This document shows, one piece after another, positions 1 through 62,927 of a DNA stretch of 64,000 bases; the first letter of the stretch is position 1, and each line of letters begins with the position of its first letter. Source of the DNA: Amphiscolops sp. MND2022 (taxonomy: Eukaryota); contig OZ076409.1 of NCBI GenBank assembly GCA_964187785.1, positions 59,336,001 through 59,400,000 of the forward strand, given 5' to 3'. Under the pieces are notes generated by a model that was given only the letters and a program-made list of their open reading frames with translations, did no database searches and had not been told where the DNA came from. Made by a program: the position numbers and the translations under genes.

Positions 1-853
1 CAAGTCCTGGAAGCCATCTTTGAAACGAAAACAAAACCCGGCAGACCAAAATGTTGGTAAAAAGGAAGAGAAAATACTGACTACGTTATTCATGAACCAT
101 TCAAAGAAGTCTTTAACGGAACTTTTACGACATCTTAAGCCAGAAAACATTTGTTACACTAACCCAGTGCTAAAAATACGGCTGAAAAATAGCCTTTAAG
201 CAAGAGTAGCGTTTAGGAAACTGTTTTTGACCCGACGGCATCGACTTCTTTGGAAAAAATTGGCATCGGATATCGTCCTAAAACCGACAACTTCTTGGAA
301 AACATCAATTTTTCAGTTGAAACATCTAATGGCAGAAAAGGACTGGCAAAAGTGTCGAAAACATTAGTGCCCTCTGTTACTTTTTTCTTACAAGGTGTTT
401 TTCTTCCCAACATCTTCCTTGGCAAAATATTCCAACAAGACGATGCTCCTGCCCATACAGCCACGTTAACAAAAACAATGATGTTCGAAATTGATGTAGA
501 AAATTGGGCGGCTGTGTCTTCAGACCGCAATATTATTGAGCATTTATGGAGTTTTATGAAACAAAAAATCTCTAAAACGAAGCCGAGTACTGTGGACGTA
601 CTTTGGTGCTCTTGCAAAGAAAAATTTCGGGAACTTCTGCAAGATTTCATTGAAATTCTTCATGGGTCTATTCCCAGAAGACTAAATTAAGTATTACGCA
701 GAAAAGGTAAGAACAATGAATAATTGACGACTTCTTGATGTTATATTTGTAACATGTTGTGGTTTTGTTAGTTGTTGATTACATATTTCAAAAGTTTTCT
801 GTCTTTCCAAATTTTTTCCTAACTAGGAGTTCTATTCTTCTATCACAGGACTG
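1..853 (+). mobile_element. Decayed Tc1-like DNA transposon, 3' part (left end outside window)
   Basis: ORF 250-690 contains Tc1 catalytic-region motifs FQQDDAPAH, NW..SSDRNIIEHLW and C-terminal SIPRRL; ends in ...ATCACAGGACTG followed by TA (854-855), as expected for a CAGT-starting TIR and TA target site. Confidence 0.8.
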
Positions 854-2289: not shown

Positions 2290-4186
2290 TGTTGTAACGG
2301 CAAGCTGTTATCGGTCGCTTAACACGTTAACAGAGTTGGAGGAACCTGCAGAAATGGTAAACCGCTCGGGACAGGCGCCCATAGCCACAGATCCTTTTTG
2401 TCTCCAGGGTGCTTTGACGAAAACTGTCCAACCGGTCCTAGTCTTTGATTGCTAATAGTAACGGGCATCTTCCTGACTCTCTAAAGACTACCGCTTAACT
2501 AGCACATAAAAACAATGCTAAGAATAAGGTAAATTTCCAATTCCAGGGTGACATGGGGAATAAGTTCTAAAATGGGTAATAGGGTCTAAAACTGTCAAAA
2601 CTAGGGCTCCAGCTAGCTAAAACCAGTGAAAATACTTCAGAACAGGTACGAATATGGCAAACCACACAGCTAAAACCTGGGGCGCCGGGACTCCAAGCAC
2701 CAAATAAGGAGAATTAAGCTACAAGACTTATTTTGCTGGTTTCCGCTACATAAGGTAGCATAATGCTAAACTTTAATGAAAACCAGGGGGGTTAGCACCT
2801 GAAAAAGAGTCTTTTTCTAGAGTTTTTCTAAGTCCTCAAGCTGTTTCATTCTCGGTGTTCTCGCTCCGTCTTGATCGGTCCTCGTTTTCCATTGGAAATG
2901 GCAAAAACAGCGAAAAGGGCAATCACATGGTCAGTGCCACGTCACACATCGAATTAGAATTTTTGACAACATTTCTGAACATGTCGAAGTTGCAAAATTG
3001 CTGTACCAGAGGGTTCCGTTGCATCACTCCCCGAGCTTTAGACATGACGTCCCTGTCAAGCGGAGAAGCTGGAAACGTCTCCATATCAGCATTGCAATCC
3101 ACTGGGAGTTCCAACTGAAGTTGCAAGGCTACAGTGGCACTGTCAACTTTAGCTGATTGGGCAACCTTGAGGTCTTGCTTCATACCATCCACAGAGCCTG
3201 CATCGTTCACAAACTGTTGAAACAGAGCTAGCCCTTGAGCTAGAAAACAAGTTCTCAAAAATGCACCTTGAAATTGGTCAAATCCCAAATTTTCATACAT
3301 CAATCTAGGAGCACCAATTTGTTAGCACGAGTTTTCTGCACCAAATTTGCACAGGATCTTTCTAGCACAATGGTTTTTTGGACGTCTAAAATTTTTTTGA
3401 CGGAGCCCTCAAGCTTCGAAGCGCACGTGGTTCTCAGCAAAAAAGTCATCCATTGAATTATCTGTTTGCTGCAAAGTTTAAAGATGTTCTTGATAAAACT
3501 TCTTTTCAGCGGAAAAACCACTGTTTAAAAGGTAGACAAGCTGCTTCTTTTCATACTTTCTTGTTCAGAGTTCAGCTTGATTTGGACAACACGCGCTGAT
3601 GTGCAGCTTCATACCTGACTAGAGTTCAGTAGCATCTGTTAAAGAGCGCATAAGAAAACGAACTGCCCGTGAGAGGTAGCACTGGTGTATGGAAGGCAAA
3701 ATTTGACAAAATCCTGCAATTTAGATACCTGGAGCCCGCGAGCTTCATATTTTGTTGAATATCACGTTGAAACCTGGAAGAAAACACTGTAAAACTTACG
3801 CAAAAACTTACGCGGAACTTTACGCAAAAGCGAAAATAGCACCTTTCGGGCGAAGCGATAAATGTAGAGTTTTTGGGTTAAATATGCAGCGTTTACATGA
3901 CTGAAAATATCTGCTTTGAAAACAATAAGTGCTTTGAAACAATCACTGCTTGAAAAGAGCCTCTGGCTGCCAAGTGTCCATTACCACACGTAGCGATATT
4001 CTCTGGAAGTTGCTCATTCGAGTGGTGGAGTTGAGGGGTGTTTTTATCTTCAACTGGGGCTCCCCGGGCCTTATTCGACACCCCGGGCTTTAGTCATCGA
4101 GCACCCTCTTTGATATGAGGATAGCAATGACCATCTGAAGATACAAGAGGAAGAATTGGGCGTTGGCGACATGGGCGTTGACGACA
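2290..4186 (-). mobile_element. Candidate ~1.9-kb 3' LTR of a truncated LTR retrotransposon
   Basis: On the minus strand a purine tract AAGGGGGAGGGGG is followed after 1 nt by TGTCGTCAACG; the far end reads CGTTACAACA, giving TG...CA termini with an imperfect inverted repeat (TGTCGTCAACG / TGTTGTAACG). The block is GC-richer than its flanks. No partner LTR in the window. Confidence 0.6.
2923..3612 (-). pseudogene. Decayed reading frame of unknown family inside the candidate LTR
   Basis: ORF 3303-2923 extends upstream in the same frame to an ATG at 3612 through four stop codons (MKLHISACC...KKQLVYLLNSGFSAEKKFYQEHL*TLQQTDNSMDDFFAENHVRFEA*...*QIGAPRLMYENLGFDQFQGAFLRTCFL...). No recognised domain. 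Confidence 0.45.
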
Positions 4187-4187
4187 A

Positions 4188-4200
4188 CCCCCTCCCCCTT
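4188..4200 (-). other. Polypurine tract (plus-strand primer site) of the truncated LTR element
   Basis: AAGGGGGAGGGGG on the minus strand directly upstream of TGT at 4186. Confidence 0.6.
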
Positions 4201-4333
4201 GAAAAGATGTGGAGTGTGGTTTGGAATGTGTAGGCGGTATCATCCGGTAGCAACGCGTGCTACCAAAAGGACGTATCAAGCAAGAAAATCAGGAACTGAA
4301 ATTGAAAATAAACAAAAGGATAGAACTCTAAAA

Positions 4334-4693
4334 TTAGGCGATGCCAGGAAACTGTCCAATGCTGGCAGTAGAGACATAGACGCGATCATGCAGAACAACA
4401 GTGAAGCCAGTTGCTGTGATAACGTCCATGACACTATGATAGAAATTGTCCAAGCTGCGAAGTTGGCACTCAGTGTCCACTATAGGGAAGTGAATATCAG
4501 GGGTTCCATTGGACAACAATGAAGCTTTCAAATGTTCCAAGCAGAGGAAGAAATCATCGGTAATTTGGGGTGCACGCTGGGAGGGGCGTGTTATCAGCGG
4601 GTGAGCAATCTGGTTATCTATGAAAGATGAGGCACAGAATATATTGCTCGCAATGATTTGGCAGGGAATGCCATTCAAACAACGATCTTGCAA
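4334..4693 (-). pseudogene. Divergent macrodomain-like (TARG1/OARD1-type) ORF remnant in retroelement 3' region
   Basis: HPLITRPSQRAPQITDDFFLCLEHLKASLLSNGTPDIHFPIV...VMDVITATGFTVVLH aligns by eye without gaps to the recalled C-terminal half of human OARD1 ([42 protein letters not shown]...IEEVFEATDIKITVY). The 5' part is interrupted by a stop. Confidence 0.55.
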
Positions 4694-5318
4694 AGTTCTT
4701 CCGAAGAGTCACAAAAAATAGTTAACTGTATATCATAGAGGCGGCAGTGTATGAATATATAAATGATATTAATAGAGTGTATATGAAGGAATAATTGCGT
4801 TTTTAGATAATTTTCCTGGTTTGTGGCCTGGGCATTGACTAAAGAAGACTTCCACCAAAGTTGTTTTCCGCCGCGAATATTTCAGTCTCCATGAGCGTGG
4901 CTGATTAACAGCAAAAACTGTACAACGAAGAAAAGAAAAAGAAAAAATTTTCCGTGAAAAGTGAAAGAAAAGTCAAACACGGGAGTCTGTCCCTCTGAGA
5001 TGTTTCTCCGAAGTAATATCTTTCAGAAAATTTCAACAACGAACCCTTGGAAGAATTTTTCGAAAAGACGTTTCTGAACAAAAGAAAAATTCCTGGTGAT
5101 CGATTTTGCTTTAAAATGATGAGAAAAATATACTGTATTTAAGAGTCCTTCGAATGGAGATTCCCTCGTGAGCAAACACCGACTATAAGAGTGGCTGGTT
5201 TAAAGACCGTCGCACTGGCGCACTTCTACAGGTGTTAAAAATGTTAACTAATTTTTCAACTTGCTGCCGTTTTTTGGACTAGTAGTAAATGAGGACTCCG
5301 AACTTTCCATTTACTCGC

Positions 5319-6090
5319 TTTTAGTCGGTGCTCTCGGGGAAAATGCAGACAATAGTAATAGCTTCTCTTTTTTAGTTCGCTCTTCTTGAAAAAGATCAGA
5401 CTCTTACAGTGGCAAATTTTTTCTTCAGTCACCCTGTAACGTCCACTTTCATGACTTTTATAAATTTGCTCCCACCTGTTGGCTTAGTGATTAACGCAGA
5501 TTACCGGGTGTGGTGACGATGCCTGAGCAGCAGGAATTCGAGGGTTCGAGTCATTCACTAAGCGAAACGTTTTTGCCAGCAAAGGTTCAGGAAAGACCAA
5601 AGAGTCATCCTTTTGCCCTTTTTTCAGCACTGTGTGGCTTTTTTTCTGAATTGTCCATCGAAGCCCCTAATTGTTTTAGAAACAACATGTTTCGCGAGAA
5701 TGAAGGCCCTTAAAAATCTTTCTGCACTATACAACTTACGGAAAAATGTTCCAACCCAATTTTTAGTTTTTTGGGTGAGAAAAATTGTTTTCGGAATGTT
5801 AAGGGTGGCCTCTTTGATGTTTTCGGTCCTGTGTTACTGATGAGTTTTTTCCATGATTGTAGAGAAGACATATAATTTTTTCGGAACTGTGTAACTCTTT
5901 TTCAAAAATTAAGTTTCTGATTTTTCGAAATCAGGAAAAAGCGGTTTTGGAGTCTTACATGCTTTTTTTTGGTTTTGTCCATTAGAGTTTTTTAAAAAAA
6001 ACTTTCAGAATATTGTGTCCCTTTGCATAGTTATCGCACTTTACTCTCTCTGAACCATTAGCGAGGCTCCGACTTGGGTAGTTCCTTGTT
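5319..6090 (+). mobile_element. Helentron-associated non-autonomous element (HINE/DINE-1-like), diverged copy
   Basis: Starts TTTTAGTCGGTGC and ends ...CTCCGACTTGGGTAGTTCCTTGTT, matching the family termini; carries a tRNA-like module at 5480-5563. Confidence 0.55.
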
Positions 6091-8401: not shown

Positions 8402-9659
8402 TGTAATAGCACTTTGTGTGAATTTTTGAGAAATGAATAAATTATGCGAGAATCCTGATAACTCCTAAAGCATTCGGACTTAAACATTCGTACCAGATGC
8501 CGTACAACACTTGCAGCATACTACAGTATAATTTTACTCTTCATGTATTTTTTGAATAAAATATTTGGCAGTATGACTCATCATATTGATCTCATTGAGT
8601 GTGCAGTGCTATGTTGAAATCATCATTTGTATTAGTAATGATTCATGCTACAAGTTGCTGTTAACTTCATAGATGATGAATACGTTGGTACAGTTAAAAT
8701 GCTGTGTTTGGCGGCCAATCAAAGCGAAGTAAAATTAGTCATGCAAGCATCTATTTATAAAAATAACGTAATGTGCAACCCTATTTTATATTAAATCGAG
8801 TACTATTTTTAGTAATTAGATAATAATGATGTTAGCTTGACACTCCAAAAATTGGTTGTCATGTTGCTAAATTTAGCCCAAATAAAAAGCAGAAAAAAGA
8901 GCTCATAAAAGAATCATTCAACGAAAAACTTTCAGACCGATCAGACCTTCTTTCCATTCCCTCAATCTTTGTTCTAACTTCAATAACCTAACATTATGTG
9001 CATTTTTCTTCAACTTTATTTCAACTCCGTTCTACTTTGAGATCATCATCCTAATGGAAAGTCTTCTCTCCAAAACAGCATTTTAACCTGACTAAAAAGG
9101 GTAACAAGAGAAATAAAAGATCTAGACGGGGACAATCACCCTCGCTTGAGAGAGAGTTGAGCACATCCGAAATAGAAACATCAGAAGTAATGAAACTGTT
9201 ATCGAAACTTTAACTAACTTTGAAAATGTTAGTTCAGTTAGGAACGATGGAGCAGTATTAGATAGCGGAACGCAGAATGAAAAAGAAATGCAAATCTGGA
9301 CCCAAAGAATATATGATAAGACAAATAAAGAAGTAGCAAACTTAAGGAAAGAAATGGATGAGAAACTAGAGAAAGTGCTGAAAGAGATGAAAAATAGCAG
9401 AAGAACACAATCCGTACCAAGCAGGAGATATCAAGAGCGAAACACCCCAGAGCGGGAACCTCAAAATACATAGATAACGAAGGCGGTGAAGAAAACGCAT
9501 CTGAGCCGGAAAATCAGGAAAGTGAAATACAGGATAATCCTTTCAGGCTATCTAACATGAATGAACTTGGAACGCCAATACAACCTCCGAGTATGCAAAG
9601 CATTGATTTAAATGACTCTGTGGTCATAAATGAGGACCGCACAGGAGAGGATTATCACA
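8402..9659 (+). mobile_element. Solo LTR (~1.26 kb) of an LTR retrotransposon
   Basis: Termini TGTAATAG...TTATCACA (imperfect inverted repeat) flanked by a 4-bp direct repeat AACA (8398-8401, 9660-9663); TATA-like TATTTATAAAA near 8752. Confidence 0.65.
9088..9659 (+). pseudogene. Gag-N-terminus-like coiled-coil reading frame within the solo LTR, two frameshifts
   Basis: Reconstructs as (M)TKKGNKRNKRSRRGQSPSLERE...EMQIWTQRIYDKTNKEVANLRKEMDEKLEKVLKEMKNSRR...IQDNPFRLSNMNELGTP...NEDRTGEDYH, open up to the terminal CA; frameshifts near 9187 and 9449. Confidence 0.55.
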
Positions 9660-12600
9660 AACAATATTTTCCAAAGCTCCATCGTTGCTGGAAAGGTTTT
9701 ACCCTACTCTCAAATGCCAAATTTTGAATCAAAACGACAGATGAATGCACCTACTTTTAGGCATTTTCAGGTTACTAAATTTATTGATAATGAAAAACGT
9801 TATGCTTGGGATAACTTGAAAAACTTTTGCAGAATGGAGAGCGCATTTAAAAAATCAGCAAAATGAACAACATGTTCGTCAAATATCTTGGAACTGAGGT
9901 CATTCATCGAAAAAGTTTTCTAGCACCCCTTGTCAGTTTTAGTGTTCCTGGAAACATTTGAGGAACAAGGTTCTCTAAGCTGTAGTGGTTCGCAACTATT
10001 TGACGAAACCGAAGAATAGCCACTATGTCCTACCTCAAAACATGCGACAAAGGAGAAAACTAAGTTTTTCTCTAGTTCTTTTTTCGAGATGATTCTTCAC
10101 TCGCATTTCTTGTTTCATCAAAATGTTATGATATCATTTCATTAGAACGTTCATCAAAATATAGCAATTTTGTAGAAATTTATCCAATACGAAATTTTCG
10201 TAGTTTCACGATACCCAAAAAAAGGAGTTTTTGAAACATTTTGGAAGTTTATTCCATATTCAGGCAATGCATGTATAAGCAATTTTTCAAAATCAACGTA
10301 TGTGCATCATTTTGAAGCATTTCTACTTATTCAGCCAGAGACAGAGTTTTTGTCGGTAAGTGTACATTCTTGGTTTATTTGAGCGCTTCACAAGCATTAG
10401 ATTTTTCCATTCAAAAATTAGCTGAAGAGCTAAATGTTTCGTTTTTAATTCTCTGGCCATTCATATCGATAAAGGTTATAAATTGTACAAAACTATCATT
10501 AAAATACCGAAACATGATAGTCAATTTGACAATTTACATCTTTTGCCTTTTTGTTTAAAAAATTTTTACAGAAACATTCACAACTTTTCCTCAAATATAT
10601 AAGCTACGAACTTTCGTTTTTCGTCATTGATTTTTATTGAAGAACATGAACTTCTGAGTAGAAAACTGGACCATGGCAAAACTTGGAGATGATTTTTTGT
10701 TCCCATTTGGAAATTCGGTGGAAAAACTCGAATCCCGGAGGTAGATCTTTTCTTTTATAAAAGAAGTTTATAGTTTAAAAAAGACTATATAAAAAACTAT
10801 AGCTTATAAAAGACTATAGTTTCAAGTCTTTGCGGTCCTCACGTATCTGAAATATGCACAAAGATTATATATACTGCATCACCTTTTAATTTTCAACAAG
10901 TTTTGTTCCAAAAGAGGTCATTTTGCGCCACAAATAATCCGAAGTTAGTTTTCTAGCCAATAAAAGATTGGAAAATTGAGATTTATTCATAAAAGAAAAA
11001 TACTGCTAATTAAACGCGGCTGCTAATTGTCGTTCTAATTGGCAGTTCTGTCTTGATAACTGATCGATTTACAACAAACGTACGTCACCATTAAAATCTC
11101 TTTCCGTCACTATTTCATACATGGAAAACAAAAATTAACTTCTCAGTACTAAGTTTTTTCATACTAAATTAGCTCAACTTTTCATTGGAGATATTTTTCC
11201 ATAGGAACAATTTAAAAATTTAAAAAGAGGTGCTTGGCATATGCCTCTCAGAAGTTAAGTTTTTTTTGGAAAAAGTGCCAAGAATGGAAAGTTCCGAAAT
11301 AAGCTTGAAAGCTTCAAAATTTGTCCAAATTTCAAAGGTTTTCAGTGGTTCAAATTTATTGTCCACAGTCGAGCCATAAAAATGTCTGTTGTTAAGATGA
11401 ATTAAGGCGAAATCCCAACGCTTTGATTTGCTTCCATTTGCTTAAACAAGACAGTTTTTTCATCATCTGTACATTTTTGTCTCGTTTAAACGTGACTGAC
11501 GAATGCATACAATAGTTAAAGTCTGATGGAATTATAATACATTTTTTACGGGTTTAGGTTAGGTTGGGAAGTTTGCAGTTTTCCATCTTGCCAAACGCTT
11601 CCGAAAGGTATATATATATCCTCTGTTCATTTGTATTGGTGGTAATGTAATATGGGAAGAAAACGGTGTTTTCATTCAGCAAAATTGAAAGTTCGTTTTT
11701 ATTAAATGAAACTTGGTAATTCCGTAAGTTGTTTAGAAAACGATGCATTAATGTCTTCATAAATTTATGAAGGCTTGAATTGTTGCGAAGTTATTTACTG
11801 TGAGAAAAATTGCATAGAAGTTCGATAATACATGTAAGTTTAACAAAGTTACTCCCTATTCGCACCTCGAGATAATCATTAAAATGCAAATTTCAATGCA
11901 TTCAGTCGAAAATAATTATTCGTTTAATTTGATGTAAATCGGTTGAAATTCAAACTGTTCAAGATACTTCGTACAATATAATGCCAATGTTTTAGAATTG
12001 TATCTTGAAAACATGTAAAAATGTTAAATTCTGTGCTATTAGTTCCAAAGCGGAACATTCGCGCACGGAATTGGAAATGTGAATTTTTAAAATTTATTAT
12101 TCCTCTACAGTTTTTTCCCAGAAAAATCTAACTCGCTTCATAGCAATCGTTGATGGCAATGTTAATATATAGGTGTTTCTTTTCGTGTAACATACCCTCC
12201 ACATTTGTAAATTTTAAAGCCTTTTTTCTAGGAACCTTCTCATCACAGACGATGCATGTTACTGCTAAATGTTTTTCCAAAAAATGTTTAATTAGTTAGC
12301 TTCGAAAACGAAAATTTTCAGGGTGTTCCCCATTTTTGCTTTAATTTCATTACCAGAAAAACTTTAAACTGACTCAAAGTAAATACTATCCGACGAGACA
12401 GCCCGTTTTGCGTATATTACTGGCGTATATTTTTGTTATTATGCTATTTTTTTCACTGGGAAATAGACGATCAAAAATCGGAATTTCAACTTTTTTCGGA
12501 AATAGTTTTCCAAGCTAATAAAACCGCACAGATTAGAAATGTTTCCAAATTTTCTATCCAAAACATAACACTCACGCGGCAAGTTGTTTTGCGTACATTT

Positions 12601-13907
12601 ATAAAACTTTGCTTTTATAAAATAGTCGATCGAAAGTCGCGAAAAATTTTTTAAAACTTTCGGAAATTTCGTGTCAGGTGCCCAATTTTCAAACTTATGA
12701 GGCAATCTTCTCCAAACCGAAAATCGATACGGATGCCATGTTTTCGTTTCGTTGAAAGTTGCGCAAAAGCCTAGGCTATCTTTTTGTCGAACAAAATTTT
12801 CAAAAAATTTCTTCATAGGTTTTTTTCGAAGAAAAAATAAAAAGAAGGAATTATTGAGTGTTTCCTATCTTTGATCTCCTACATCTCAGACCCGAGACCA
12901 AATCCAAATGCGGAATCCATGGTGTCGTAAATTGTACCAGCGTTTCGTTGTCCACATTTTAGCCTAAAGCTGACGTCAAAATTGTCTGAAGCTTGTCTGA
13001 ATTTTTTTCCGATTTGTAGCTCATATTTCGCAGGACTAAAATAGATACGGAAACCAATCTCACCCAGAAAGTGCAGCAAAGGTATAGGCTAAAAGAAGTT
13101 TATCTGATTTCAGACCAAAAAAGTTTTTAATGGTTTTAACCCGAAATCAGCGGGTCTTCGAACACGTTCTGTGCCCTTTCATTTCCGTTTTGTTCTTTGG
13201 CAAAAGCCCTTTTAAGCACGAAGGGTGTTTTTGGGCCCTGTAAGACTTTTGGAATTTCTACAAAAAAGTTTTTCCCAGCTGAAAGATCAAAGCTGTTTTA
13301 ATTCAAGCTCGGCTCAAAATTATTTCTAAAGGCCCTGCTGAAGGTTCGTTCAAAATAGTAAAGTTTTTAAAATTTGCAATATTGTTGAACTTTCATCAAT
13401 TTCACAGACCCAAAAGACACGAAGCGGTACGCAAAAGACTCGAAAATCACTTTTTCCCCAACAGGAAACAGCAGAAAAATCATCTTGGTTAATCGAAAAC
13501 CTCTCAAAAGTCAAAAAATTGAGAAAAAGTTTTCAATTTTTTTTCAGAATATGTCTCCAGTAAGTCGCACATTCCCGAAACCCCCAAGGAGTCTTCTATG
13601 CTCTCAAAACTGTTGGTTCCTATAAAAATTGAGCGGGGCTTCGATAAAAACAAACTATAAAAGTCACATTGTACCGAAAAAACTCCGGTCTTGAAAAAAT
13701 GCGGATTGCATTGAAAAGTATGTCAGTGGATGTTTTGATATCAGACGAAGAATTTTGAAAGTCTTATAATGCTGAAAAATGTAGAAGGGCCATTTTGACC
13801 TTTTTTAACATCCTTCCTGTTGCAAAAAATCAAAATATTGAAGAGGGAACCTTTTAGAGACATTAAAAAATTTTCGAGAAAAAGTCTCACCAAGTCGAAA
13901 AAAAAAC

Positions 13908-16900
13908 AGTAGAAAGTTTCATAGTCCCGAAAAAAGTTTGAAAAAGGAGACCCTTCTGCTTCGGAATAGTTTTGTATTTCTTGTTAGAGGCTTTGGATGC
14001 GTTCAAAATCAAATTGGTAAAAAGTGCACAATGCACAAAAAATGGACCAATTGCGTTGAACTGACAAAAAAACAGACACTGTAAGAGTCGTGCTTTTTTT
14101 TTTCAAAAACGCCAATTTTTTAAAACAGGTTGCAGAACCTCCATTTTAGGAATATTTCTGAAGTTGAATTTTTCATTTTCGATTGAACAAAAACTTTTCA
14201 GGATGAAACTGCTACCAATACGTGTATTTCCTCAAAAGAAATATTATTTTTTCTATTAAAACTACTTTGACTTATCAATAATCGAAATTTTTTTAAATAT
14301 TTTCATCGGAACAGTGTAGGTTTGAGAGATCATTCAATAAAATCCAAACGGGAGAGCCAAACAGAAGATTTCATCAAAAGTTTTGACACCGAAAATGACA
14401 AAAACTCGAAATTTTTCGTTTTTCCCAGTTTTTACGCAATTGTTTTTGTCAAACTTTTGACCAACTTCGTGGATTGGAATGCTGAGAAACGTCAACAAGG
14501 AAAGAATTTTATTCCAGTAGGACTTTTTGAAGAGTTTTTTGCAGTTTTCTAATTTAAAAATACGTCAAATCAGCAACAAAATTGACAAAAAATATTCAAA
14601 GTTTTCCAATTTTTAAAGTTTTTATACAATTTCTGTCAAAATTCCGAAAGACTTCGAGAATTGAAATATTGATGAAAACGTTCATCAAGGCAGCAACTCG
14701 TTGTCCAGTAGTCTTGAAAGATGAGATAAAGTCAGTTTTTCATTCGAAAAAAGTCTAAATTTGAAACCGAAGTTGACAAAACTCCCCAAAATTTTCAATT
14801 TTCAAAGATTTTATGCAGTTTTTTTCCGAATTTTCGACAGACTCCGGAAATTGGAATATTGGATCGAGTCCGTAAGAAGTGAATTGGATATCCAGTATGC
14901 TTAGTGGAGAGATAAATGCAGTTTTGTAAAAACAGATTGTCTAGAATTATACATCGAAAAAGACAAAAGTTCAAAAATTTTTCTATATTCACCATTTCTG
15001 TTCAATTTTTGTCAAACTATCGATAGACTTCGTAGACTAGAATGGTAAACCCCTAAACAATGGGGAACTTGTTGTTTTTGTAAGCTTTCGTCAAGAGATA
15101 AGTTCAATTTCTAAAAGAGTAGAAAGTTTCATAGTCCCGAAAAAGTTTGAAAAAGGAGGGAGACCCTTCTGCTTCGGAATAGTTTTGTATTTCTTGTTAG
15201 AGGCTTTGGATGCGTTCAAAATTAAATCGGTAAAATGTGCACAATGCACAAAAAATGGACCAATTGCGTTGAACTGACAAAAAAAACAGGCACTGTAAGA
15301 GTCGTGCTCTTTTTTCAAAAACGCCAATTTTTTAAAACAGGTTGCAGAACCTCCACTTAAGGAATATTTCTGAAGTTGAATTTTTCATTTTCGATTGAAC
15401 AAAAACCTTTCATGATGAAACTGCTACCAATACGTGTATTTCCTCAAAAGAATTATTATTTTTTCTCTATCTATTTCGATATTCTCTAACTATTTCGACT
15501 TATCAATAATCGAAATTGACTTCCCAGAACGAAATATTTTAAAAAAATTTTTGATCTGAACAGTGTAGGTTTGAGAGATCATTCAATAAAATCCAAACGG
15601 GAGAGCCAAACGAAGATTTCATCAAAAGTTTTGAATTCAGGTGGTCACCTTATTGATCCCTGGATAAAATTTTTCTTCTTGGTTTTTTATTTTCCGCCCA
15701 TCTTTCATTTTTTAAACGAAATTTGCCAAGAATTAATTTCACTGAAACTAAATTTAAATTTATGGATGTTACCCATAGAATTCTACCCACAAAAATTTAG
15801 CTTGGTGCGATATGTATTTGTGGAGAATTCTGGACTTTTTTAGTTGACCCCAAGGACCCCAGAATGACCCAAAAATGAGAAAATTTGCAAAAATTTCCAA
15901 TTTTTCTACGTTTCAATGCAATTTTTTGATAAATATCGTGAATTAGAATTTTGAAAACGTTCAACAAGGCACGAAATCGTTGTCCAGAAGTCTTCTGTAG
16001 TGAGATAATTGCTGTTTTCCAAATGAAAAAGATCTCGAATAGACACCAAAAATGACAAAAAAAACCAAACATTTCCCATTTTAAACGTTTTTATGCATTT
16101 TTTGTCACATTTGCGACAGATTCGTCGTGGATTAGAATGTTAAAAACGCTCAAAATGGCACAAATAGGTTGTCCATTAGGCTCTTCCGGAAAGATAACTG
16201 CCTTTTATCTAATGAAAATGTCTCAAATTGACACCGAAAATGACAAAAACTCGAAATTTTTCTCTTTTGAAAGTTTTTACGCAATCTTTTTGTCAAACTT
16301 CTGACCAACTTCGTGGATTGGAATGCTGAGAAACGTCAGCAAGGAAAGAAGTTTATTCCAGTAGGCCTTTTTGAAGAGTTTTTTACAGTTTTCGAATTTA
16401 AAAATACGTCAAATTAGCAACAAAAATGACAAAAATATTCAAAGTTTTCCAATTTTTAAAGTTTTTATACAATTTCTGTCAAAATTCCGACAGACTTCGA
16501 GAATTGAAATTTTGATGAAAACGTTCATCAAAGCAGCAACTCGTTGTCCAGTAGTCTTTAAAGATGAGATAAAGTCAGTTTTATATTCGAAAAATCTAAG
16601 TTTGAAACCGAAGTTGACAAAAACCCCCAAAATTTTCAATTTTCAAAGATTTTATGAAGTTTTTTTCCGAATTTTCGACAGACTCCGGAAGTTGGAATAT
16701 TGGATCGAGTCCGTAAGGAGTGAATTGGATATCCAGTATGCTTAGTGGAGAGATAAATGCAGTTTTGTAAAAAAAAAAGATTGTCTAGAATTGACATCGA
16801 AAAAGACAAAAGTTCAAAAATTTTTCTATATTCACCATTTCTGTTCAATTTTTGTCAAACTATCGATAGACTTCGTAGACTACGATGGTAAACCCCTAAA

Positions 16901-16960
16901 CAATGGGGAAATTGTTGTTTCTATAAGCTTTCGTCAAGAGATAAGTTCAATTTCTAAAAG
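13908..16960. repeat. Recent local tandem duplication, arrangement A-B-A'-X-B'
   Basis: 13908-14385 matches 15118-15634 and 14382-15117 matches 16228-16960 with few differences; X (about 15635-16227) is missing from the first copy. Confidence 0.9.
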
Positions 16961-18300
16961 AAATGCTTCAAATTGATCCTGAAACTGTCGAAAAATTTGA
17001 ATTTTTTGTCGTTTTTGATGCAATTTCTGTTGAATTTCCAAGATTTTCCGTCAAAAGTTCAAACACAATCAACAACGGAAGAACGAGCTATGCATTACAT
17101 TTTTTGAAGAGAAGGTTTCAGCGTTTTGCATCAAAAACACTTCAGAATGACTCCAACTAGTTCAAAATAATTCAACATCTTCGTTTTTATACAACCTATG
17201 TCTACATTTTGAATCGTTTTGGAATCAGAATGATAGTAAAGATTCAGCAAAGACTGAACTCATACTTCTGTCAGCTTTTAAAGAAATATTTGCAAACTTC
17301 GATTGAAAAAAGAGGCCGCAAACAGTTGAAAGTGTCAAAATGTTTATCGATTCCTGGCAATTTCAGTTGATTTTAATTTGAGATTGGAACATTTTGGTAA
17401 GATAGAAGCTTCAAAGAGCTCCAGATGATGAAACTAGATCCACAGCACAGCACGTTTACAAGAACAATTTACATGTTTTATGGCAGTGAGTTTCTTCAGA
17501 ATGACCCAAAAATTGCAAAAATTGAGAATTTCCAAGTTTTTTTTAATTTTTGGCCGTTTTTTGTACAATTTCTGAGCTACTACCTTGCATTAAAAGGTTT
17601 AAAGGCTCAACAAGGACCAATCTTGGTATCCAATAGGCAGTTTTAAGAATATCATTGCAATTTCTTGATGGAATTGGCCTCAGAGCACCCAAAATCTATT
17701 GAACAAAAAGGCACGTTTTTTGACAAAGTATTCCCAATTTCTGTTCAAACCACAAATTTGCTCGTAAATAGAGAACTTGACCCGAGCGAAACAATAGGGC
17801 ATTCAAAACGCAAGTTCGGAAAAAAAAGTAGGCAGAAGTTTGTCGAGTTTACAACAAAGGTGTCAAAAGTTCTGATTTTCCTCCATTTCTATCAATATAG
17901 TCCCACTTTTTGACACTTTGCGAAAATTTACTTCAATCAGAAAACCCATAGGCTCAAGGTTGAAACGTGTAGCTACAGGTAGTGTTTCGAAAAGATATCA
18001 GACAAGTTTATTTGCACAACAAAAACGTTAGTTGAAATTGTAAATTTCGACCTTATTTGTCAAACATTCAATATTCAATAAGCTCCAAGCAAAATCACTA
18101 GATACCGAGTACACCTTCCAAAGGAAATTGTTTCGAGCTAGTAGAGTGGGTTAGATTGGTCTAAGCATTCAACAACAACTAAAATTGGTGTCCAGTAGGC
18201 TTATTTGTGTAGATTCATGTATGACAAGTTCCTCAAATTGATCATATAGTTTTCGAAAATCTTTCCAAGTTTTGACACTTCTGGTGAAACTATGTGCAAT
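14382..18300. repeat. Diverged ~185-bp tandem repeat array (interrupted by block A')
   Basis: TGAC(A/C)CNAAAA-like unit starts recur near 15864, 16042, 16228, 16415, 16602, 16791, 16973, 17147, with recurring TTTTGTCAAA and TGTCCAGTAG submotifs; right boundary approximate. Confidence 0.7.
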
Positions 18301-23918: not shown

Positions 23919-24201
23919 CTACTTACACTTGAAGCAAGCGAACAATGGCATCTGATTGACCTCGTTTCTGAAGTAGGCGTTCATTGTGTAGTATATGAGG
24001 GGGTTGATCATGAAGTTGATACAGAACAAGGTCTGGCACATCGAGTGTAGAGTCTGGAACTTGTTGGCCCAGTCACGTGACTCAACGTGGAAAAAATCGA
24101 TGGCCTGCAAGATGATGTCAGGGATGGTTAGCAGCATGAAAGCACAGCTCACACTCACGAATAGCACTTTCAACTTCCTCTCATAATCAAGTTCGCGTAA
24201 C
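23919..24201 (-). CDS. Class A (rhodopsin-like) GPCR, exon encoding TM6, TM7 and helix 8
   Basis: ERKLKVLFVSVSCAFMLLTIPDII (TM6), TLFCINFMINPLIYYTMNAYFRNE (NPxxY plus helix-8 FR); acceptor TTTAACAG at 24202; phase 2 fits the upstream exon (TG+G = Trp). Confidence 0.9.
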
Positions 24202-24654
24202 CTGTTAAACAAACATACATGTATTTCGGATAAAAATATAAATCTGAAAAAATTATTTGCCCTAGTGATGTAGAGTTGAAAAGTAATATAAATGAAAATG
24301 ATTATTTAAATGCCCATTTGAATGGTCGCTTGAACTCTGCAACATTTAAAAACGCAGCCGATTGAAGAATCGGATTTATGAATGAATAATTACATTTGGT
24401 ATAAAATGGAAAAGTTTAGAACATTGGGCATTAAAAACGAATCGAATTGGTGTTACATTGGAAATCATTCAGTCATTAATATTAATGCCTAATTATTTTA
24501 ATCTCGAAATGAAACCTTTTTGATTTAAAAAAACTTATATGACGATGATATGCAAGGCAATTAGAAGGGATATATAAATGGTTTCTAAAAGCGTTTTGCA
24601 TCGGAAAAGAGGAAGTTTTAAAATGTTTTCAGAAAATGTCCAAATCACTTCGAC

Positions 24655-36916: not shown

Positions 36917-37309
36917 GGTTACATGTCAAAATCTCCTAAGTTAAAATCTCGTAGACCTAAATCTCCTAGGTCAAAATCTCCTGAAATTAGAATAAAAGAA
37001 ACTCATCGAAAAACAACTTGCCAACTTAATTGAAGCGGAAAGCTGTTCGCGTAGGAACAAAGGCTAACCTCAATTTTCAACCAATTTCAAACTTAATTGC
37101 AAACCTTCACTCATTAGTCAATTATGTAATAATCTTTCAATGACTGTCTCAGCTTTTAATGCTTAATCAAAGTTACTTTCACACTATGAAATTCAATTTA
37201 GGAGATTATGACCTAGGAGATTTAGGTCTAGGAGATTTTAGCCAAGGAGATTTCGGTCTAGGAGATTTTAACTTAGGAGATTTTAACTTAGAAGATTTAT
37301 CCTGATACC
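36917..37309. mobile_element. Mutator/foldback-like MITE with 15-bp subrepeats
   Basis: GG...CC termini; AAATCTCCTA-core 15-mers at left and TAGGAGATTT-core 15-mers at right; 8-bp direct repeat ACTTTTTT on both flanks (36909-36916, 37310-37317). Confidence 0.75.
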
Positions 37310-48000: not shown

Positions 48001-48269
48001 CTTTTTTAAAGTGTAATTTTGAGGCCTTTTAAACTGAGGGTCTATTCATACAGTATGCTACGAAGATACTTATTCCATTTCGGAACTCTGTGTGTAGTTA
48101 TACTCACCAAAATATCTAAAACATGAAAAATTGCATCGAAATCTTAAGAACCATTTACAAGCTTTTTTTTCGAAAGCATTTACAAGCATTTCGAGGGCTC
48201 AGTATGTCGAATGGGAACTCTCTTTGTTTTGAACTCTTGAAAACATTCAAAAGCTGAACAAAAGTGCCA

Positions 48270-49476
48270 CCCGTACTGAGATCCCATGGACTCCCATGCA
48301 TGGCCATGCATGGTCCACCCATGGGCCATCCATGGGTAAAGTTTGGATCCAAAAAAGCTTTCCCATGGACGGCCCATCGATGGGCCATTGATGGTCCATC
48401 GATGGGGGAGAAAAACTGACATGTCTGAAAAATTCGAATTGCGCCGGAAGCCATTTTGGTTGATTTTCTATAATCGTGTCTCTTTCATATTTTTTGGTTG
48501 TTTGGGTTGCCTTAATGACCCGGGTAGCATTAAGGACGCTTTTCGGCACCGCGTCTCCTGAAGCCGCTTGATAGGTAAGATTTTCAGGTATTTTTGGGGT
48601 AGCTGGATTCATTTACTGTCAGAAAAAGGATAAATTTAGGTCTAATTTTGGTAAATTCTAGATAATATTTAGGTTTTCTTAACATCTGTTTTTTCTCACA
48701 AGCAGATGGTTTTCCCAGCAATTAAAGCTCTATTCCGTCGTATTATGATGCGTATTTCTGCAGTTTTGCCAGTTTTTTTCAATTCTGCTGTGAAAAAACG
48801 CCGTATTTTTGATCAGATTTTTGTATTTTGAAGGTCAAATTTTTGCATATTTCAGATCTTTTATTTTCTTATAAGCAGATGGTTTTCCCAGAAATTAAAG
48901 CTCTATTCCGTCGTATTTTGATGCATATTTTTGCAATTTTACCAGGTTTTTTCAATTTTGCTGTGAAAAAAAAACGTATTTTTGATCAGATTGTTGTAAT
49001 TTGAAGGTCAAATTTTTGCATATTTCAGATCTTTTATTTTCTCACAAGCAGATGGTTTTCCCAGAAATTAATGCTCTATTCCGTCGTATTTTGATGCGTA
49101 TTTCTGCAGTTTTACCAGGTTTTTTCAATTCTGCTGTAAAAAATCTGCTGTTATGGATTGTATTTGGGAATCCGTCAGTCGATTCCTGATACATTTCTTA
49201 CATTCTGAGCATTCTCTTGAGCTTATACTGTAATGTAATTTACTTATTTCTAATGTTTTTTTTTCATAGAAGTCCCTTAGAAAGGTGTTTTTTATACCCT
49301 GGCAAAAATTGCGATAGCCCATCGATGGGAGCTCAGAATGGTCCCATCGATGGCCCATCGATGGGCCATCGATGGGCCATGGCAAAAAGGTCGGCGGACC
49401 ATCGATGGGTCATCGATGGGAATGCGATGGTCCATCGATGGCCCATGGATGGGCTGCCCTGGGATCCCAACTCGGG
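48270..49476. mobile_element. Non-autonomous CACTA/EnSpm(CMC)-like element with palindromic subterminal repeats
   Basis: Termini CCCGTACTGAGATCCC and GGGATCCCAACTCGGG (imperfect TIR), 2-bp flanking repeat CA, arrays of 11-bp units with CCATCGATGG palindromes at both ends. Confidence 0.6.
48690..49145. repeat. 173-bp tandem repeat, ~2.6 copies
   Basis: AGCAGATGGTTTTCCCAG at 48701, 48874 and 49047. Confidence 0.9.
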
Positions 49477-56661: not shown

Positions 56662-57176
56662 TATATTATCCTAATGTTATGCTCGTTGTCACAAAAAACG
56701 CCATAGCAAAATTAGGGAGCGCTTGTAAAACTTCAGCACAATGAGTAAATTATCAACTTACTACGAATTGTAGTAGCAGGTCCATGATTGATTGCATTTT
56801 ACTACAATTTTACTACAATAGGCGTGGTAGTGCCTTGAGGGCCTATCTGGGATAATTTAATTGTTTATTCGACGTCTAGCCTGTAGAATTTTCTTCTTAC
56901 TTTGTTATCAAAAAGATTACCAGTAATTTCGTCGTCGGAAATTTCGTCGTCAGAAAATTTGTCGCAAGAAATTTCGTCGTCGGAAATTTCGTCGTCAGAA
57001 ATTTCGTCGTCGGAAATTTCGTCGTCGGTGATTACGTTCTATTAAACGTCGCATTTTCTTTAATCTATTATGAATCGTCTTATTATTGAGTCTCAATAAT
57101 TATCGATAATTGTGCAATAATTACTATCATTGACTACTTTTTGTTATGGTTTTGAAAAAGTTTCGGACATAATAAC

Positions 57177-57423
57177 TGTTATACGGTGCAATACCGAACC
57201 GATTCCTTCGGTTGACAATGTCAATCAAACTTTGATCTTACATAGCCCTAAATGAGATTTATGTTTATATATATTTGTAAACATTGTGCTAGATCTTTCG
57301 TGCTAGAAATACATCATTTAGTTACCATTGAAACTAGAGAAAAGATCGTTTTGACATTGCTTTCTGTTCAAAGACATATTTTACAAAACATCGTTTTTTA
57401 CTACCTAACCAAGCGATAGAACA
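57177..57423 (+). repeat. 5' LTR
   Basis: TGTTATACGG...GATAGAACA; no difference from the 3' LTR found by eye. Confidence 0.97.
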
Positions 57424-57437
57424 TGGCGCAGTCAGCA
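57424..57437 (+). other. Primer binding site, probably tRNA-Ser
   Basis: TGGCGCAGTCAGCA directly after the LTR is complementary to ...UGCUGACUGCGCCA, a 3' end I recall from invertebrate tRNA-Ser. Confidence 0.75.
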
Positions 57438-57480
57438 ATCTAAATAAATAAACCAAGAAAACTGTATCGAAACAAAGAAA

Positions 57481-60400
57481 ATGACAGAAGACAACAAAAT
57501 CGAAGTACCGAATTTTGAAGCCACCTCAGACGGAAAGAGAATATTTACACCGAAGCAATGGCTTGAAAGATTTCGGCAATATACAAAGAGGAAACACAAG
57601 ATGGACATTACCGAACTGATACGGGGAGCCGAAATGACACAAACCGGTTGGTCCGGAAAAGAAACAGAAATCCAAGAAGACTTCATATGGGGAATCGGCC
57701 CCGAAGCATTATACCAAATGACACGGGCAGAATATAAAACCGAACCTGACAAAATAGCGGTAAAAGACTTGATCCGATTATTCAATGAATACTTCCTACC
57801 GAAACGAAACACCTATCATAACCGGGGAGAATTCTTCTGGACAAGACAAACCGAATCCGAGACACCAGAAGACTTTTGGCGGCGATTGATAGAAATAGAA
57901 AAAGAATGTGCATTTGAAGGAATAACAGCCTAAGATTTATTGATTTCAAAATTCATGACCGCAATTACGGACACGAAACTTCGGGATAAACTAATGAAAG
58001 AAAAGAAACTCGAACTGAAAAAGACAATCGAAATGATTAAACAGAACACATATGAAAGAAAGAATCGAAAAAACACAATACCGGAAGCCTTGATTTCACA
58101 TCGAGAAAAAGAAATAAAAGAAGAACCGATACAGAGAATGGAAAAATCTGATACAAGACCAAAGAACAAATTCACAAATGAGAAACCATGCAAATTCTGC
58201 AACGCACCGAACTGGAACCCCACTCACAAATGCCCGGCATTGGGAAAACTTTGCAACAACTGCGGAAAGAAGGGACACTTCGCACGGGTATGCAGACAAA
58301 GAGATAACTACAAACGCAAAGTACGCAATGTGACCGAAGAAGATTCGGAAATAATTGGAGGAGAAACCGACGAATCAGAAACAAGCATACACAGAATTGA
58401 AAGAATAAATAGAATTACCGACAGAAACAAATGCCTGACAGCCGTGGTGAAAGTAAACGGTATTGAAAAAGAATTCATAGTGGATACCGGATCACCAATT
58501 TCAATAATGCCCGTGGATGAGAAAATACTGAAACAAACCGAGATACAAAAAGTGAAACAACGGTACCAAGATGTAAATAAAAACGAAGTGAAATTCCGGG
58601 GGAAGATACCGGCAAATATCGAATATGAGAACAACAAACAAAAAATGCAAATTCTAATTACCGAAAGAAATGACATTACACCATTACTCGGAATGGATTG
58701 GATGAAAACGTTCAACCTGACAATCGGAAACATCCGAACGGAAGACACCAACCAATCGGAAAAGAGACGAGTGATCGAAAAGTTCCCAGACTTATTCAAG
58801 AACAACACCACAATAAAAGATACCGAAATAAATATTCAACTGAAACCGGGACACTATCCGGTGAAACAAAAAGCAAGACCGATTCCATTACATCTACAAG
58901 AGGAGGTCGGAAAAGAACTAGAAAAATTAATAAAATCCGGACACCTGGAAAAAGTAAAACACGTAGATGAAGATTGCTTTGTTTCACCGGTAGTAATCAC
59001 AGTAAAAAACGATAAATCGGTCAAAATAGCACTGGATTCAAGAAAACTAAATGACAGCTGTATAAAAATCCGGCCGCACATGCCGAACATGGAAGAATTA
59101 CTGAACCAAATTTCGGTGGAAATCACAAGAGACCGAACAAGTGAACTGAATATCTCGAAAATTGACCTCGATTACGCATACGGCCAAATGAAATTATCAA
59201 AAGAAACTAGCCGACAATGCGTATTCGCAATAACGGGAGGAAACTTCAGTGGATATTATAGATTTAAAAAAGGGTTTTACGGTCTTGCCGATATCCCCAC
59301 AATATTCCAAGAAAAAATTGACCGAACACTAGAATACTCCACACCGGCATGGCTGGACGACATCATAGTGGTAACCCGGGGTAGCCGAAAAGAACACGAG
59401 AAGAAATTATTCGATATACTGAAAAAACTGGAGAATGCAGGATACCGAGCAAGCGAAAGGAAATCCGAATTCTTCTTAAACAAAACAAAATGGCTGGGAC
59501 ATGAGATTGATGAAATGGGAATTAAACCGAATAAAGAAAAAGTGAAAGCAATACTGGAATTAAAACACCCGGAAAATCAGAAACAACTGAAATCATTTCT
59601 CGGTGCTATTCAATATCTCGCAAAATTTCTACCAAGATTATCGGAAAGAACGGAAAGACTCCGAAAACTTCTTAAGAAAGATTCTACGTGGAATTGGGGA
59701 GAACAACAAAATGAAGATTTTGACAACATAAAGAAAATGCTAACCGAGGAACCTTGCCTGGCACACTATGCAAAAGATCGAGAAAATATAGTGACAACCG
59801 ATGCAAGCAAAACCGGACTCGGAATTACATTATGGCAAAAACAGTCGGATGGAGAAATTAAACCGATAGCTTTCGGTAGCAGATATTTAAACGATAGTGA
59901 GAAGAATTACTCAATCGGAGAACTAGAATTACTTGCAGTTGTCTGGGGTTTAGAAAAGTTCCGATTTTATTTATACGGAAGGAAAGTCTTTCTTTACACA
60001 GACCACCAAGCGCTCGAACCTTTGATAAAAAGGAACCGATGTAATAGACAATACAGCGCAAGACTAACCAGATGGTTAGACCGGCTTGCGCACTTCGATA
60101 TAGCTATTCAACACATCGCAGGAAGTAATTTAAAGTTTACCGACTTCCTAAGTAGAAATCCGGTAGAAAACGCAACAACCGAGGACGTATACGATGAGCA
60201 ATACGTAATTAACATCCTTTCAGAACAAGCCGAGTTGAATAGAAAATACGGACAAATATTCGCCGACCAATCACAAAACGCGACGCAAAGAACAAAAACG
60301 ACCGAAATTAATTCTAACGACCAATCACAGCGGAATAGAACATTCGAGAAAAACCGAGACGTGAACAAAAAGCGCGAACAAACGAAACTCATTGTAAACA

Positions 60401-62529
60401 ATCGACGACAAAAAGTTCAAGCGGAAAGCCATACCCGAAAATCAAAATCAAATTTAAATTCAAATTCAAACTCCAAATCAAACCGAACTTTCTTACAAAA
60501 TTTACCTTTATTTAAGACCGAAATGGACCGGGACTACTTTCACTGGGGCGCGACAGCGGAAATAATGGAAATAATCCGGAAAAGGAGAAAGAGCCCAGAG
60601 ACACTCAGACTGGTAGAAAGACGTCTAGAGATTTCCCGACCCGGAACGATGAGAAGAAAATTCGACATGAATGCTCAAAGACAAATATGGGTCCCCTCAA
60701 GGCCAAACAAAAGAAGCAGGGAGGAAATTGCCACGATAGACGGCGAACTATTGTCACGGGCAAACCGATTTGGGGGAGGATACAGACCCTTAGAAGAAAG
60801 AACCGAAGAAGTAGAAGAACAAGAAACGCAACAACCGGAGATATTAGAAGATGCCGAACCCGAAAGCGAAGGTGAGAGCCAAGTAATCCGGGGCGATAAC
60901 TTCCCAATCGTCGACCTGAAGGCATACAACACCGAAGGGAAAGAAGCTCAATTCATACAGATCAACCAAGTGATCGATAAAATCACCGGAAACAAAAAAT
61001 CAACCGAAGAAACAATTAAAAAAGCCGAATTCAATTTCATGCTCGACCTCAAAACCCTGATAGCAAAGTCAACCACGGATGCGGAACTGAATAGAGTCAG
61101 AGACGCAATGAGACGAAATGAAAAGAACACGGCCCCAGAAGCATACCGAACAACATTTGAGAAACTGAGCAACAAGTGGGGACTAACCTTTAATGACGAC
61201 CGAATAATCGTGCCAACGGAGCTGAGAAGGAAGCTATTAGAAACACTGCACTTCGGTCACGCCGGATATACAAAGATGGCAGCGGAAGCCAAAATATTCT
61301 GGTGGCCAAATATGCAGAAAGAGATCGAGGAGAAAACAAAAAACTGCGTGGCATGCATGGCATCTGGTAAGAATTTAAAATACCAAATACCGAAACGCGA
61401 ATCCGGAAAGCTGAAAACACTAACGGAACCGGGACAAGAAATTCAAATAGACTTTTCCGGAAAATTAAACAACAAAAAATTAAACGGAGAACATCAAATT
61501 TTAATCGCGGTAGACAGATTCAGTAAATGGCCAACCGCGAAAATTTGTAAATCAGCGGAAACTAAAGAAGTCATAAACTTCCTGAAACAAAATTTTAACT
61601 TATACGGATTACCGGAGAAAATAAAAACGGACAAAGGCGGAGCGTTTATTTCAAAAGAATACAAAGAATTTTGCAAATCGAAAAACATTGAAATTGAATA
61701 TAGTACACCGAGACTTCATACCGGTACGGGAGCAATAGAACGCGCAATACAAACGTTGAAGAATTTAATTATTACCAACCTAGAAGAAAACATATGTCTA
61801 ACCGAATGTGTAAATAGAGCGCTAAACGTGATGCGCTTTACAATACATACGGGAATGAAAATCACGCCATTCGAATTACATCACGGTCGTAAACCGAGAA
61901 CCGAATTAACGAATGTAATTAAAGACGGAAGGTCGTTCCTCTCTAACTGGTCGGAATTACCTGTTTCAGCAAGCAACAGACCGAAGATTCCAATTTACAT
62001 TACCAGAAATGGTGATGGAGAAGTGTCAAACCATCTCGTTATGGCCCGAACCAAAAGTGAGGAAAAAGCGCTAACCGAAAAATCTCCGAAGAAGAAAAAT
62101 CCGAAAGAGAAGAGAGCAGCACCGAAAATCGGAGACAACATCACTCCAAAAAACCGCCATTGCCTCAGAGGAGTCGACGGCAAGTATATACAATGGAATG
62201 AAATCCTGCGAGACGTACTCAACGGAAAGCTAAAAATCATTCCGAACCCGAAGACCGGATCAGACTCGGAAAGCGAGGAAGGCGAGATAGATGAGGACGA
62301 GAGCGATTTCGAAAATCACGATACCTCCGAAAAAGACGGCCGCTACCAACCCATAACAACATCCCCCGAGGATGAATTGAACCTGCATACCGACGGCGAA
62401 CTAAACACCGGTGAGACAAAATTTAAAATTAATACAACCGAGAATGAAGGAATAAGACGGTCAAACCGTGAAAGTAAACAACCGAATAGATACGGGGGAG
62501 TCACATATACAAAACACTTTTGGACATAA
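57481..62529 (+). CDS. gag-pol: Gag-Pol polyprotein, one frame interrupted by a single TAA at 57931-57933
   Basis: ORFs 57481-57933 and 57940-62529 share a frame. Motifs: CKFC..H.C and CNNCGKKGHFARVC knuckles; protease VDTGS; RT KIDLDYAYGQ and WLDD; RNase H TDAS, ELELLA, YTDH; integrase HFGH..CVAC, IDF, KTDKG, IER. Confidence 0.93.
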
Positions 62530-62667
62530 ATTTAATATATAAATCTTTTACAGGCGAACAGTGGAACACCAGAAAAGAGCCCCCGAAACCATTGACGAAA
62601 CCAGCAGATTTCATCCGGGAGAAAACACCGACCCCGGGACCATCGAAACAGTAAGCAGAAGAAGCAT

Positions 62668-62680
62668 AGAGGAGAGGGAA
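62668..62680 (+). other. Polypurine tract
   Basis: AGAGGAGAGGGAA immediately before the 3' LTR. Confidence 0.9.
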
Positions 62681-62927
62681 TGTTATACGGTGCAATACCG
62701 AACCGATTCCTTCGGTTGACAATGTCAATCAAACTTTGATCTTACATAGCCCTAAATGAGATTTATGTTTATATATATTTGTAAACATTGTGCTAGATCT
62801 TTCGTGCTAGAAATACATCATTTAGTTACCATTGAAACTAGAGAAAAGATCGTTTTGACATTGCTTTCTGTTCAAAGACATATTTTACAAAACATCGTTT
62901 TTTACTACCTAACCAAGCGATAGAACA
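62681..62927 (+). repeat. 3' LTR
   Basis: Direct repeat of 57177-57423. Confidence 0.97.

Follow-up and report, generated by a model that had tools for sequence, protein, structure and literature searches.

When the minus-strand frame at 4334-4708 of the window (the whole stretch of 64,000 nucleotides analysed here) was compared with its relatives, it was found to carry the end of a Ty3/Gypsy gag-pol frame with a macro domain of the TARG1 class. We hold this identity and architecture with high confidence. Judged from its sequence, the locus is a 5'-truncated, decaying remnant of an LTR retrotransposon that retains the pol end, the 3' UTR, the polypurine tract (PPT) and LTR sequence. As for the copy in the window, it is dead. 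In its family the TARG1-class domain (domain B) closes a long tail behind the integrase, and a probable second macro-like domain (domain A), missed in the first-pass annotation of this DNA, lies upstream of it.

The remnant in the window

The following features were identified.

4641-4708, minus strand: remainder of the stop-free frame, foreign to the family (no alignment to the upstream residues of relatives); the element is cut off here and the upper boundary is approximate
4337-4640, minus strand: last 100 or so codons of the Ty3/Gypsy gag-pol frame, decayed, comprising the C-terminal two thirds of TARG1-class macro domain B and a short tail (tblastn with relatives; HMMER against TARG1)
4586-4588, minus strand: Arg codon at the position of the TARG1 catalytic Lys84 (alignment to TARG1)
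4463-4477, minus strand: loop DTECQ at TARG1 G121-D125, with the Glu of the G123 position at 4469-4471 (alignment to TARG1)
4334-4336, minus strand: TAA stop codon closing the pol frame (same end point in most relatives of the subfamily)
4201-4333, minus strand: 3' untranslated stretch of 133 bp (matched by read-through translations of P0009 and P0028)
4188-4200, minus strand: polypurine tract AAGGGGGAGGGGG, 13 nt (from the sequence; P0028 reads through the same tract)
4021-4186, minus strand: start of the 3' LTR, TGT-initial, its first 15 bp near-duplicated in tandem, reaching at least 4021, with a candidate end ACA at 3975-3977 (from the sequence; the tails of P0027 and P0028 match)

The frame consists of 124 stop-free codons, with a TTG at 4693 and no ATG. 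Its length alone is unremarkable, as 28 frames of at least 110 codons were counted in the window. Since long frames are common here, the coding reality of 4334-4708 rests on homology. When relatives were searched against the window by tblastn, positions 4633/4642 to 4340 were aligned at about 80% identity. The frame is not a whole ORF: homology ends near 4640, and the 24 or so codons that open it are unrelated to the family.

The first-pass annotation had also placed the end of this ORF about 130 bp before a PPT and an LTR start, and this was confirmed. The stop lies 133 bp from the purine tract, which is followed on the minus strand by a T and then by TGT at 4186, giving the PPT adjoining a TG-starting LTR that is expected of Ty3/Gypsy elements. 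The PPT pattern had one match in the sequence and none in 100 shuffles, a comparison that is not independent because the pattern was derived from the same sequence. In three frameshifted relatives (P0009, P0027 and P0028) the tails match the 3' UTR, purine tract and LTR of the window down to 4021. The coding frame, PPT and LTR start thus travel together, and the linkage predicted for other copies was found. Neither a second copy of the LTR nor an RT, integrase or other coding sequence of the element was found elsewhere in the 64-kb window.

In the tree (36 rows, thinned from 150), the window copy groups with P0209 in a clade of 13 rows (support 99/98), where its terminal branch is long (0.40). 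Of the 78 columns that its subfamily conserves, 15 are changed in this copy; among 19 other members the changed share has a median of 1.4% and reaches 6.3% at most. The earlier description of a decayed copy was therefore sound.

A decayed coding-like stretch (2926-3650, minus strand) lies just past the LTR, and in the protein collection its 125-aa frame is a singleton. No protein-family match was obtained for it, and the frame at 2926-3300 did not match the Gag of P0161 or P0188. The candidate LTR end at 3975-3977 is followed by TGGCAGCC, a putative primer binding site (PBS) that might make 2926-3650 a tandem or internal region. No tRNA gene was found against which this PBS could be compared.

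The macro fold and its place behind the integrase

In the first protein search, 30 of the 34 candidates were homologues at 70-90% identity (best E-value 9.7e-44, 81% identity). When 1.84 billion representatives were searched, 45 matches were obtained with identity down to about 31%, of which two (P0062 and P0078) were dropped as repeat-protein artefacts. The relatives form a multi-copy family. Its young clusters of 178 and 41 members keep the frame open through both domains, and the pocket motif is maintained in at least seven diverged lineages. Contigs of 566-19,571 bp carry the most diverged members and long contigs the close ones; the records suggest a family that spans more than one assembly. 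No related locus was found in the viral or metagenome contigs searched.

No meaningful match to the domain was obtained with Pfam, PHROGs or NCBIfam. In the ESM Atlas, weak feature matches were obtained for the window frame (0.78) and for the tail of P0113 (0.86-0.88), which are leads only; one cluster matched by the P0113 tail has Macro on 15% of its members. When an HMMER profile of 26 close relatives was searched against PDB, all five matches were TARG1/C6orf130, at weak E-values (0.026-0.037). Two broader profiles again placed TARG1 first in PDB, also weakly (E-value 0.14-0.29), and single-sequence PDB searches gave no match. The proposed check against macro profiles thus succeeded in part: TARG1 was found by the family profiles, but the Pfam Macro profile matches no family member searched. 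The gapless alignment to the C-terminal half of TARG1/OARD1, drawn by eye in the first-pass annotation, was recovered with HMMER, without gaps between the LIT strand and the last strand, and by the fold search.

The AlphaFold2 model of P0008, which shares 79% identity with the window over 96 residues, was built template-free from an alignment without TARG1 and has a block pLDDT of 60-92 over residues 51-190. In the structural check that had been suggested, its top Foldseek match was TARG1 (E-value 2.8e-10). With VIA, TARG1 also came first (Z 15.4, rmsd 2.6 over 133 residues), followed by DarG, the Bt protein 2afc and Poa1p. The model of P0110, from another subfamily, aligned to TARG1 (4j5r) over residues 540-682 (Z 17.9, rmsd 2.2 over 137 residues). 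As modelled in these two relatives, domain B has the minimal alpha/beta/alpha macro fold nearest to TARG1, DarG and Poa1p.

The domain had been described as a separate accessory ORF in the slot of env, and this is not the arrangement in the family. In each of the 24 matches from the search of longer proteins (677-1980 aa), the domain or the stretch directly preceding it lies close to the C-terminus, and five of these proteins have a Pfam integrase in the same chain, preceded by up to RT and RNase H. P0161 is a single frame of 3178 residues with Gag zinc knuckle, protease, RT, RNase H, integrase and tail. The order protease-RT-RNase H-integrase, which identifies the element as Ty3/Gypsy, is present in P0161, P0153, P0119 and P0112 (the window copy is truncated before these domains), and the best PDB match of P0112 is the Ty3-G Gag-Pol (E-value 1.4e-106). 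A retrotransposon origin, as first proposed, is thus upheld by relatives carrying the domain behind RT-RNase H-integrase. The integrase-end motif and the domain share one frame in 34 of the 225 collected proteins (motif search). P0209, of the same subfamily as the window copy and outside this motif count, opens with the integrase-end motif, from which 769 residues lead to domain B. The domain is in frame with the integrase in three subfamilies, as the C-terminal domain of gag-pol.

The post-integrase tail of about 750 residues consists of a linker, a knuckle, a spacer, domain A (about 120 residues), a linker of about 70 residues and domain B. The first linker has about 290-300 disordered residues with an AT-hook-like RGRP motif, which was seen in all 21 long proteins parsed (Pfam AT-hook matches were weak, E-value about 0.3). 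The four-cysteine knuckle CxxC...CxC was seen in 20 of these 21, and P0209 carries both. Between two subfamilies, identity was 65-68% in the integrase, 42-46% in domain A, 36-41% in domain B and 25-32% in the linkers. Domains A and B appear to be under constraint at the protein level.

Two long stretches of P0161, at residues of about 1160-1460 (between protease and RT) and about 1820-2070 (between RNase H and integrase), are Pfam-blank spacers, and P0188 is similar. The first of these we take, by eye, to resemble a dUTPase.

When domain A was scored with the profile of domain B, an E-value of 3.3e-4 and a score of 28.6 were obtained. The best of 30 column shuffles reached 16.5, the reversed sequence 13.3 and three other regions 11.5-19.3. 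The order of strands and helices is that of domain B (model pLDDT 54-82, within a longer chain), and both show the same D-x-x-R loop pattern. In the structural alignment, domain A matched a leucine aminopeptidase in its macro-like domain (Z 6.2 over 108 residues), and the tandem PARP14 macro1-2 spans A and B. These sequences and models suggest that domain A is probably a degenerate macro domain, a duplicate of domain B; the hhalign probability of 38.5% for domain A speaks against it.

The rewired pocket and its possible role

The register of the pocket was read in P0110. The numbering of 4j5r ends at 152 (its chain has 146 residues), the structural match ends at 682-152, and without gaps R614 corresponds to K84, E653 to G123 and P655 to D125. 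The HMMER alignments of the close-relative profile and of the two broader profiles, which are gapless in this part, support the same register. Residues were then counted in 175 rows kept of 194 matches among 223 proteins, many of them near copies. The K84 position is Arg in 160/167 rows and Lys in none, the G121 position is Asp in 158/164, the G123 position is Glu in 153/163 and Gly in 3/163, and the D125 position is never Asp (0/162). With rows thinned to 70% identity, K84 is Arg in 23/27, G123 is Glu in 23/30 and Gly in 0/30, and D125 is Asp in 0/29. Subfamilies merely 30-45% alike share the new residues. The first loop of the family is almost without glycine, and the terminal Asp of the first strand, which we take to be the adenine-reading Asp of macrodomains, is kept in 50 of 53 rows. 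At the loop where the window copy has DTECQ, most relatives read DPERP. The first-pass annotation had the GCGLD loop replaced by DTECQ; the loop is indeed altered throughout the family, but DTECQ itself is private to the window copy and, by comparison with its relatives, a product of its decay.

In the available text of PMC9411070 and PMC7050489, K84 and D125 are the catalytic dyad of TARG1. This Lys84/Asp125 dyad is absent across the family, in line with the earlier suggestion of a pocket that would be non-catalytic. The small residue (Gly123) by which ADP-ribose binders are recognised in the diphosphate-binding loop is missing as well. According to excerpts of PMC5928194, ADP-ribose binding and activity were abolished in TARG1 by G43E, I44E and G123E, and TARG1-G123E was more stable with RNA binding intact. 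As both the catalytic and the binding-loop features are lacking, domain B is not a TARG1 enzyme despite its TARG1/ALC1-class fold. However, the ALC1-class hydrolase SCO6735 is active although it has no Lys/Asp dyad (PMC9411070, as excerpted), and with the first-strand Asp kept, residual or new activity is possible. From the residues, we consider it likely that the canonical ADP-ribose function has been lost in the family.

We propose that the lineage captured a macrodomain of the TARG1/ALC1 class and then duplicated it. The sequences show that the ADP-ribose pocket has been replaced, with K84 changed to Arg, the G121-C-G-L-D125 loop to D-x-E-R-P/S/G and the first-loop glycines lost, and that the domain forms the end of the Gag-Pol polyprotein, alongside motifs of DNA/chromatin type. 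Most likely ADP-ribose would be neither bound nor removed any longer. The macro tail may serve the integrase in cis as a protein/chromatin-binding tether, which would steer or stabilise the pre-integration complex from the slot held by the chromodomain in chromoviruses. Precedents for readers adjacent to the integrase are the chromovirus chromodomain and the MBD of CopiaMBD (available parts of PMC6673714 and bioRxiv 2021.11.30.470311). The whole account (a Gypsy remnant with a rewired pseudo-macrodomain pair acting as an integrase-linked chromatin/protein tether) is tentative and has slightly less than an even chance of being right, the tether being suggested by position and analogy. The macro domains lie about 500-750 residues from the integrase end, and protease may cleave them from the integrase. 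It is rather unlikely, but conceivable, that the rebuilt tandem pocket (Arg84, Asp121, Glu123 and Arg124) would direct integration by reading some ligand that is not ADP-ribose, for instance a mark or protein of chromatin. If true, this would be target-site selection based on a macrodomain, with the laboratory's 'dead' G123E fixed by nature.

The polar cleft residues are the best-conserved columns across subfamilies, and one could read the invariant Arg, Asp, Glu, Arg and His as a new active site or as a site for a different small ligand or for a modification (a nucleotide, the end of an RNA or a modified residue). The retained first-strand Asp and the D-x-x-R loop shared with domain A fit such a pocket, as does the fact that catalytic residues have been altered in the ALC1 class before (PMC9411070 and PMC7050489, in part). 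However, the same residues could plug the cleft by pairing with each other in internal salt bridges, Glu at 123 stabilised yet blocked TARG1 (PMC5928194, excerpts), and the context points to no substrate. We regard a neofunctionalised pocket as unlikely.

The tail might also bind element RNA or cDNA, or act as a particle scaffold, in the way that TARG1 binds RNA outside its pocket. The retention of RNA binding in TARG1-G123E (PMC5928194, same excerpts) speaks for this, together with the basic RGRP stretch and Cys knuckle of the tail. However, TARG1 probably does so through basic patches on its surface, and domain B is overall neutral to acidic: the net charge of the whole domain is -10 to +3 in 94 full rows and, within the subfamily of the window copy, -5 to -10 in six members. 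Nucleic-acid binding is quite unlikely as the role.

The first-pass annotation had favoured counter-defence, by an ADP-ribose-binding or decoy protein. In a form adapted to the polyprotein, a Pol cleavage product would bind or erase host ADP-ribose marks. The TARG1-class fold is consistent with this, many viruses carry macrodomains of similar fold, ADP-ribosylation aids L1 silencing in mammals (PMC4695847, available part), and macro domain ORFs occur in fish endogenous retroviruses (PMC4977317, available part). However, the family has Arg at 84, no Asp at 125 and a first loop that is not glycine-rich; its loop is acidic at the expected diphosphate site, and the domain is not a separate gene. 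The family Glu at G123 speaks in particular against the decoy, as TARG1-G123E neither binds nor hydrolyses (PMC5928194, excerpts). We consider counter-defence improbable.

That the captured gene is a functionless passenger decaying at the pol end is very improbable, as its identity below that of the integrase (36-46% against 65-68%) and its lost catalytic residues stand against frames open through both domains in the young clusters, a motif persisting across the diverged lineages, and domains more conserved than their linkers.

Macro domains of retroelements have been seen elsewhere: Poa1p-like macro annotations occur in polyproteins of insect retrotransposons, and macro domains occur in some LINEs. 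With TARG1/OARD1/C6orf130 (of the ALC1-like class with DarG, Poa1p and SCO6735), domain B shares the minimal macro fold (Z 15.4-17.9) and the loop lengths of the C-terminal half. It differs in being 13-20% identical, with K84 replaced by Arg, G123 by Glu and D125 lost, and in sitting within a retrotransposon polyprotein, probably as one of a tandem pair. The domain order protease-RT-RNase H-integrase, the PPT and the TG-starting LTR are those of Ty3/Gypsy retrotransposons; the post-integrase tail of about 750 residues (with AT-hook-like motif, Cys knuckle and macro-like domains) and the single gag-pol frame of P0161 set the family apart. Chromoviruses and CopiaMBD elements likewise have a host-type domain in frame by the integrase, with the same proposed tethering logic, but here the domain is a macro fold that lies far from the integrase core and has no known mark. 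Macro domains are described as additional ORFs in epsilon-like endogenous retroviruses of fish (PMC4977317, in part, citing Basta et al. 2009). These LTR retroelements also captured a macro domain but are Retroviridae in which it forms additional ORFs, a comparison made through the citing description only.

In the literature searched, which included parts of PMC7217437 and PMC4695847 and left most subscription papers and Repbase reports outside its coverage, nothing was found that describes a tandem TARG1-class domain with a rewired pocket behind the integrase of a Gypsy pol. The domain is real and previously unannotated, a host-type domain fused behind a retrotransposon integrase; Supplementary Table 6 (transposon fusions) of bioRxiv 2021.11.30.470311 may bear on its novelty. 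The list of host-type domains behind retrotransposon integrases thereby gains a macro fold invisible to Pfam, and the family is a natural example of a long-conserved macrodomain that seems to have swapped ADP-ribose for another partner. Two questions become testable with small proteins, namely the ligands of macro folds with a plugged pocket and the part of readers other than chromodomains in Gypsy site choice.

Other elements of the window

A young Gypsy element of another family, with identical 247-bp LTRs, was found at 57177-62927 (plus strand). It has frames of 161 and 1531 codons with one in-frame stop between them, and encodes zinc knuckle, protease, RT, RNase H and integrase, with an unannotated stretch of about 370 residues between RNase H and integrase. 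This intact-looking element was considered as a member of the same family and rejected, as identity was 23-30% and it is without a macro domain.

A remnant of a DDE_3 (Tc1-like) transposase lies at 217-690 (plus strand; E-value 4e-4). Part of a 7TM GPCR, a host gene exon of an animal genome, lies at 23925-24305 (minus strand; Srw E-value 2.4e-6). Two overlapping frames of about 108 codons at 9150-9727 (plus strand) are of coiled-coil/low-complexity type, belong to no Pfam family and are possibly a retroelement remnant. Satellite-like repeats of about 187 bp and 15-bp tandem arrays were seen at 13900-17000, 36925-37304 and 56910-57052. At 48250-49470, three 173-bp repeats have arrays of 11-bp near-palindromic CCATCGATGG units on both sides. 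Many dispersed MITE-like repeats occur in the window, with fragments at 5369-5908, upstream of the macro-domain remnant.
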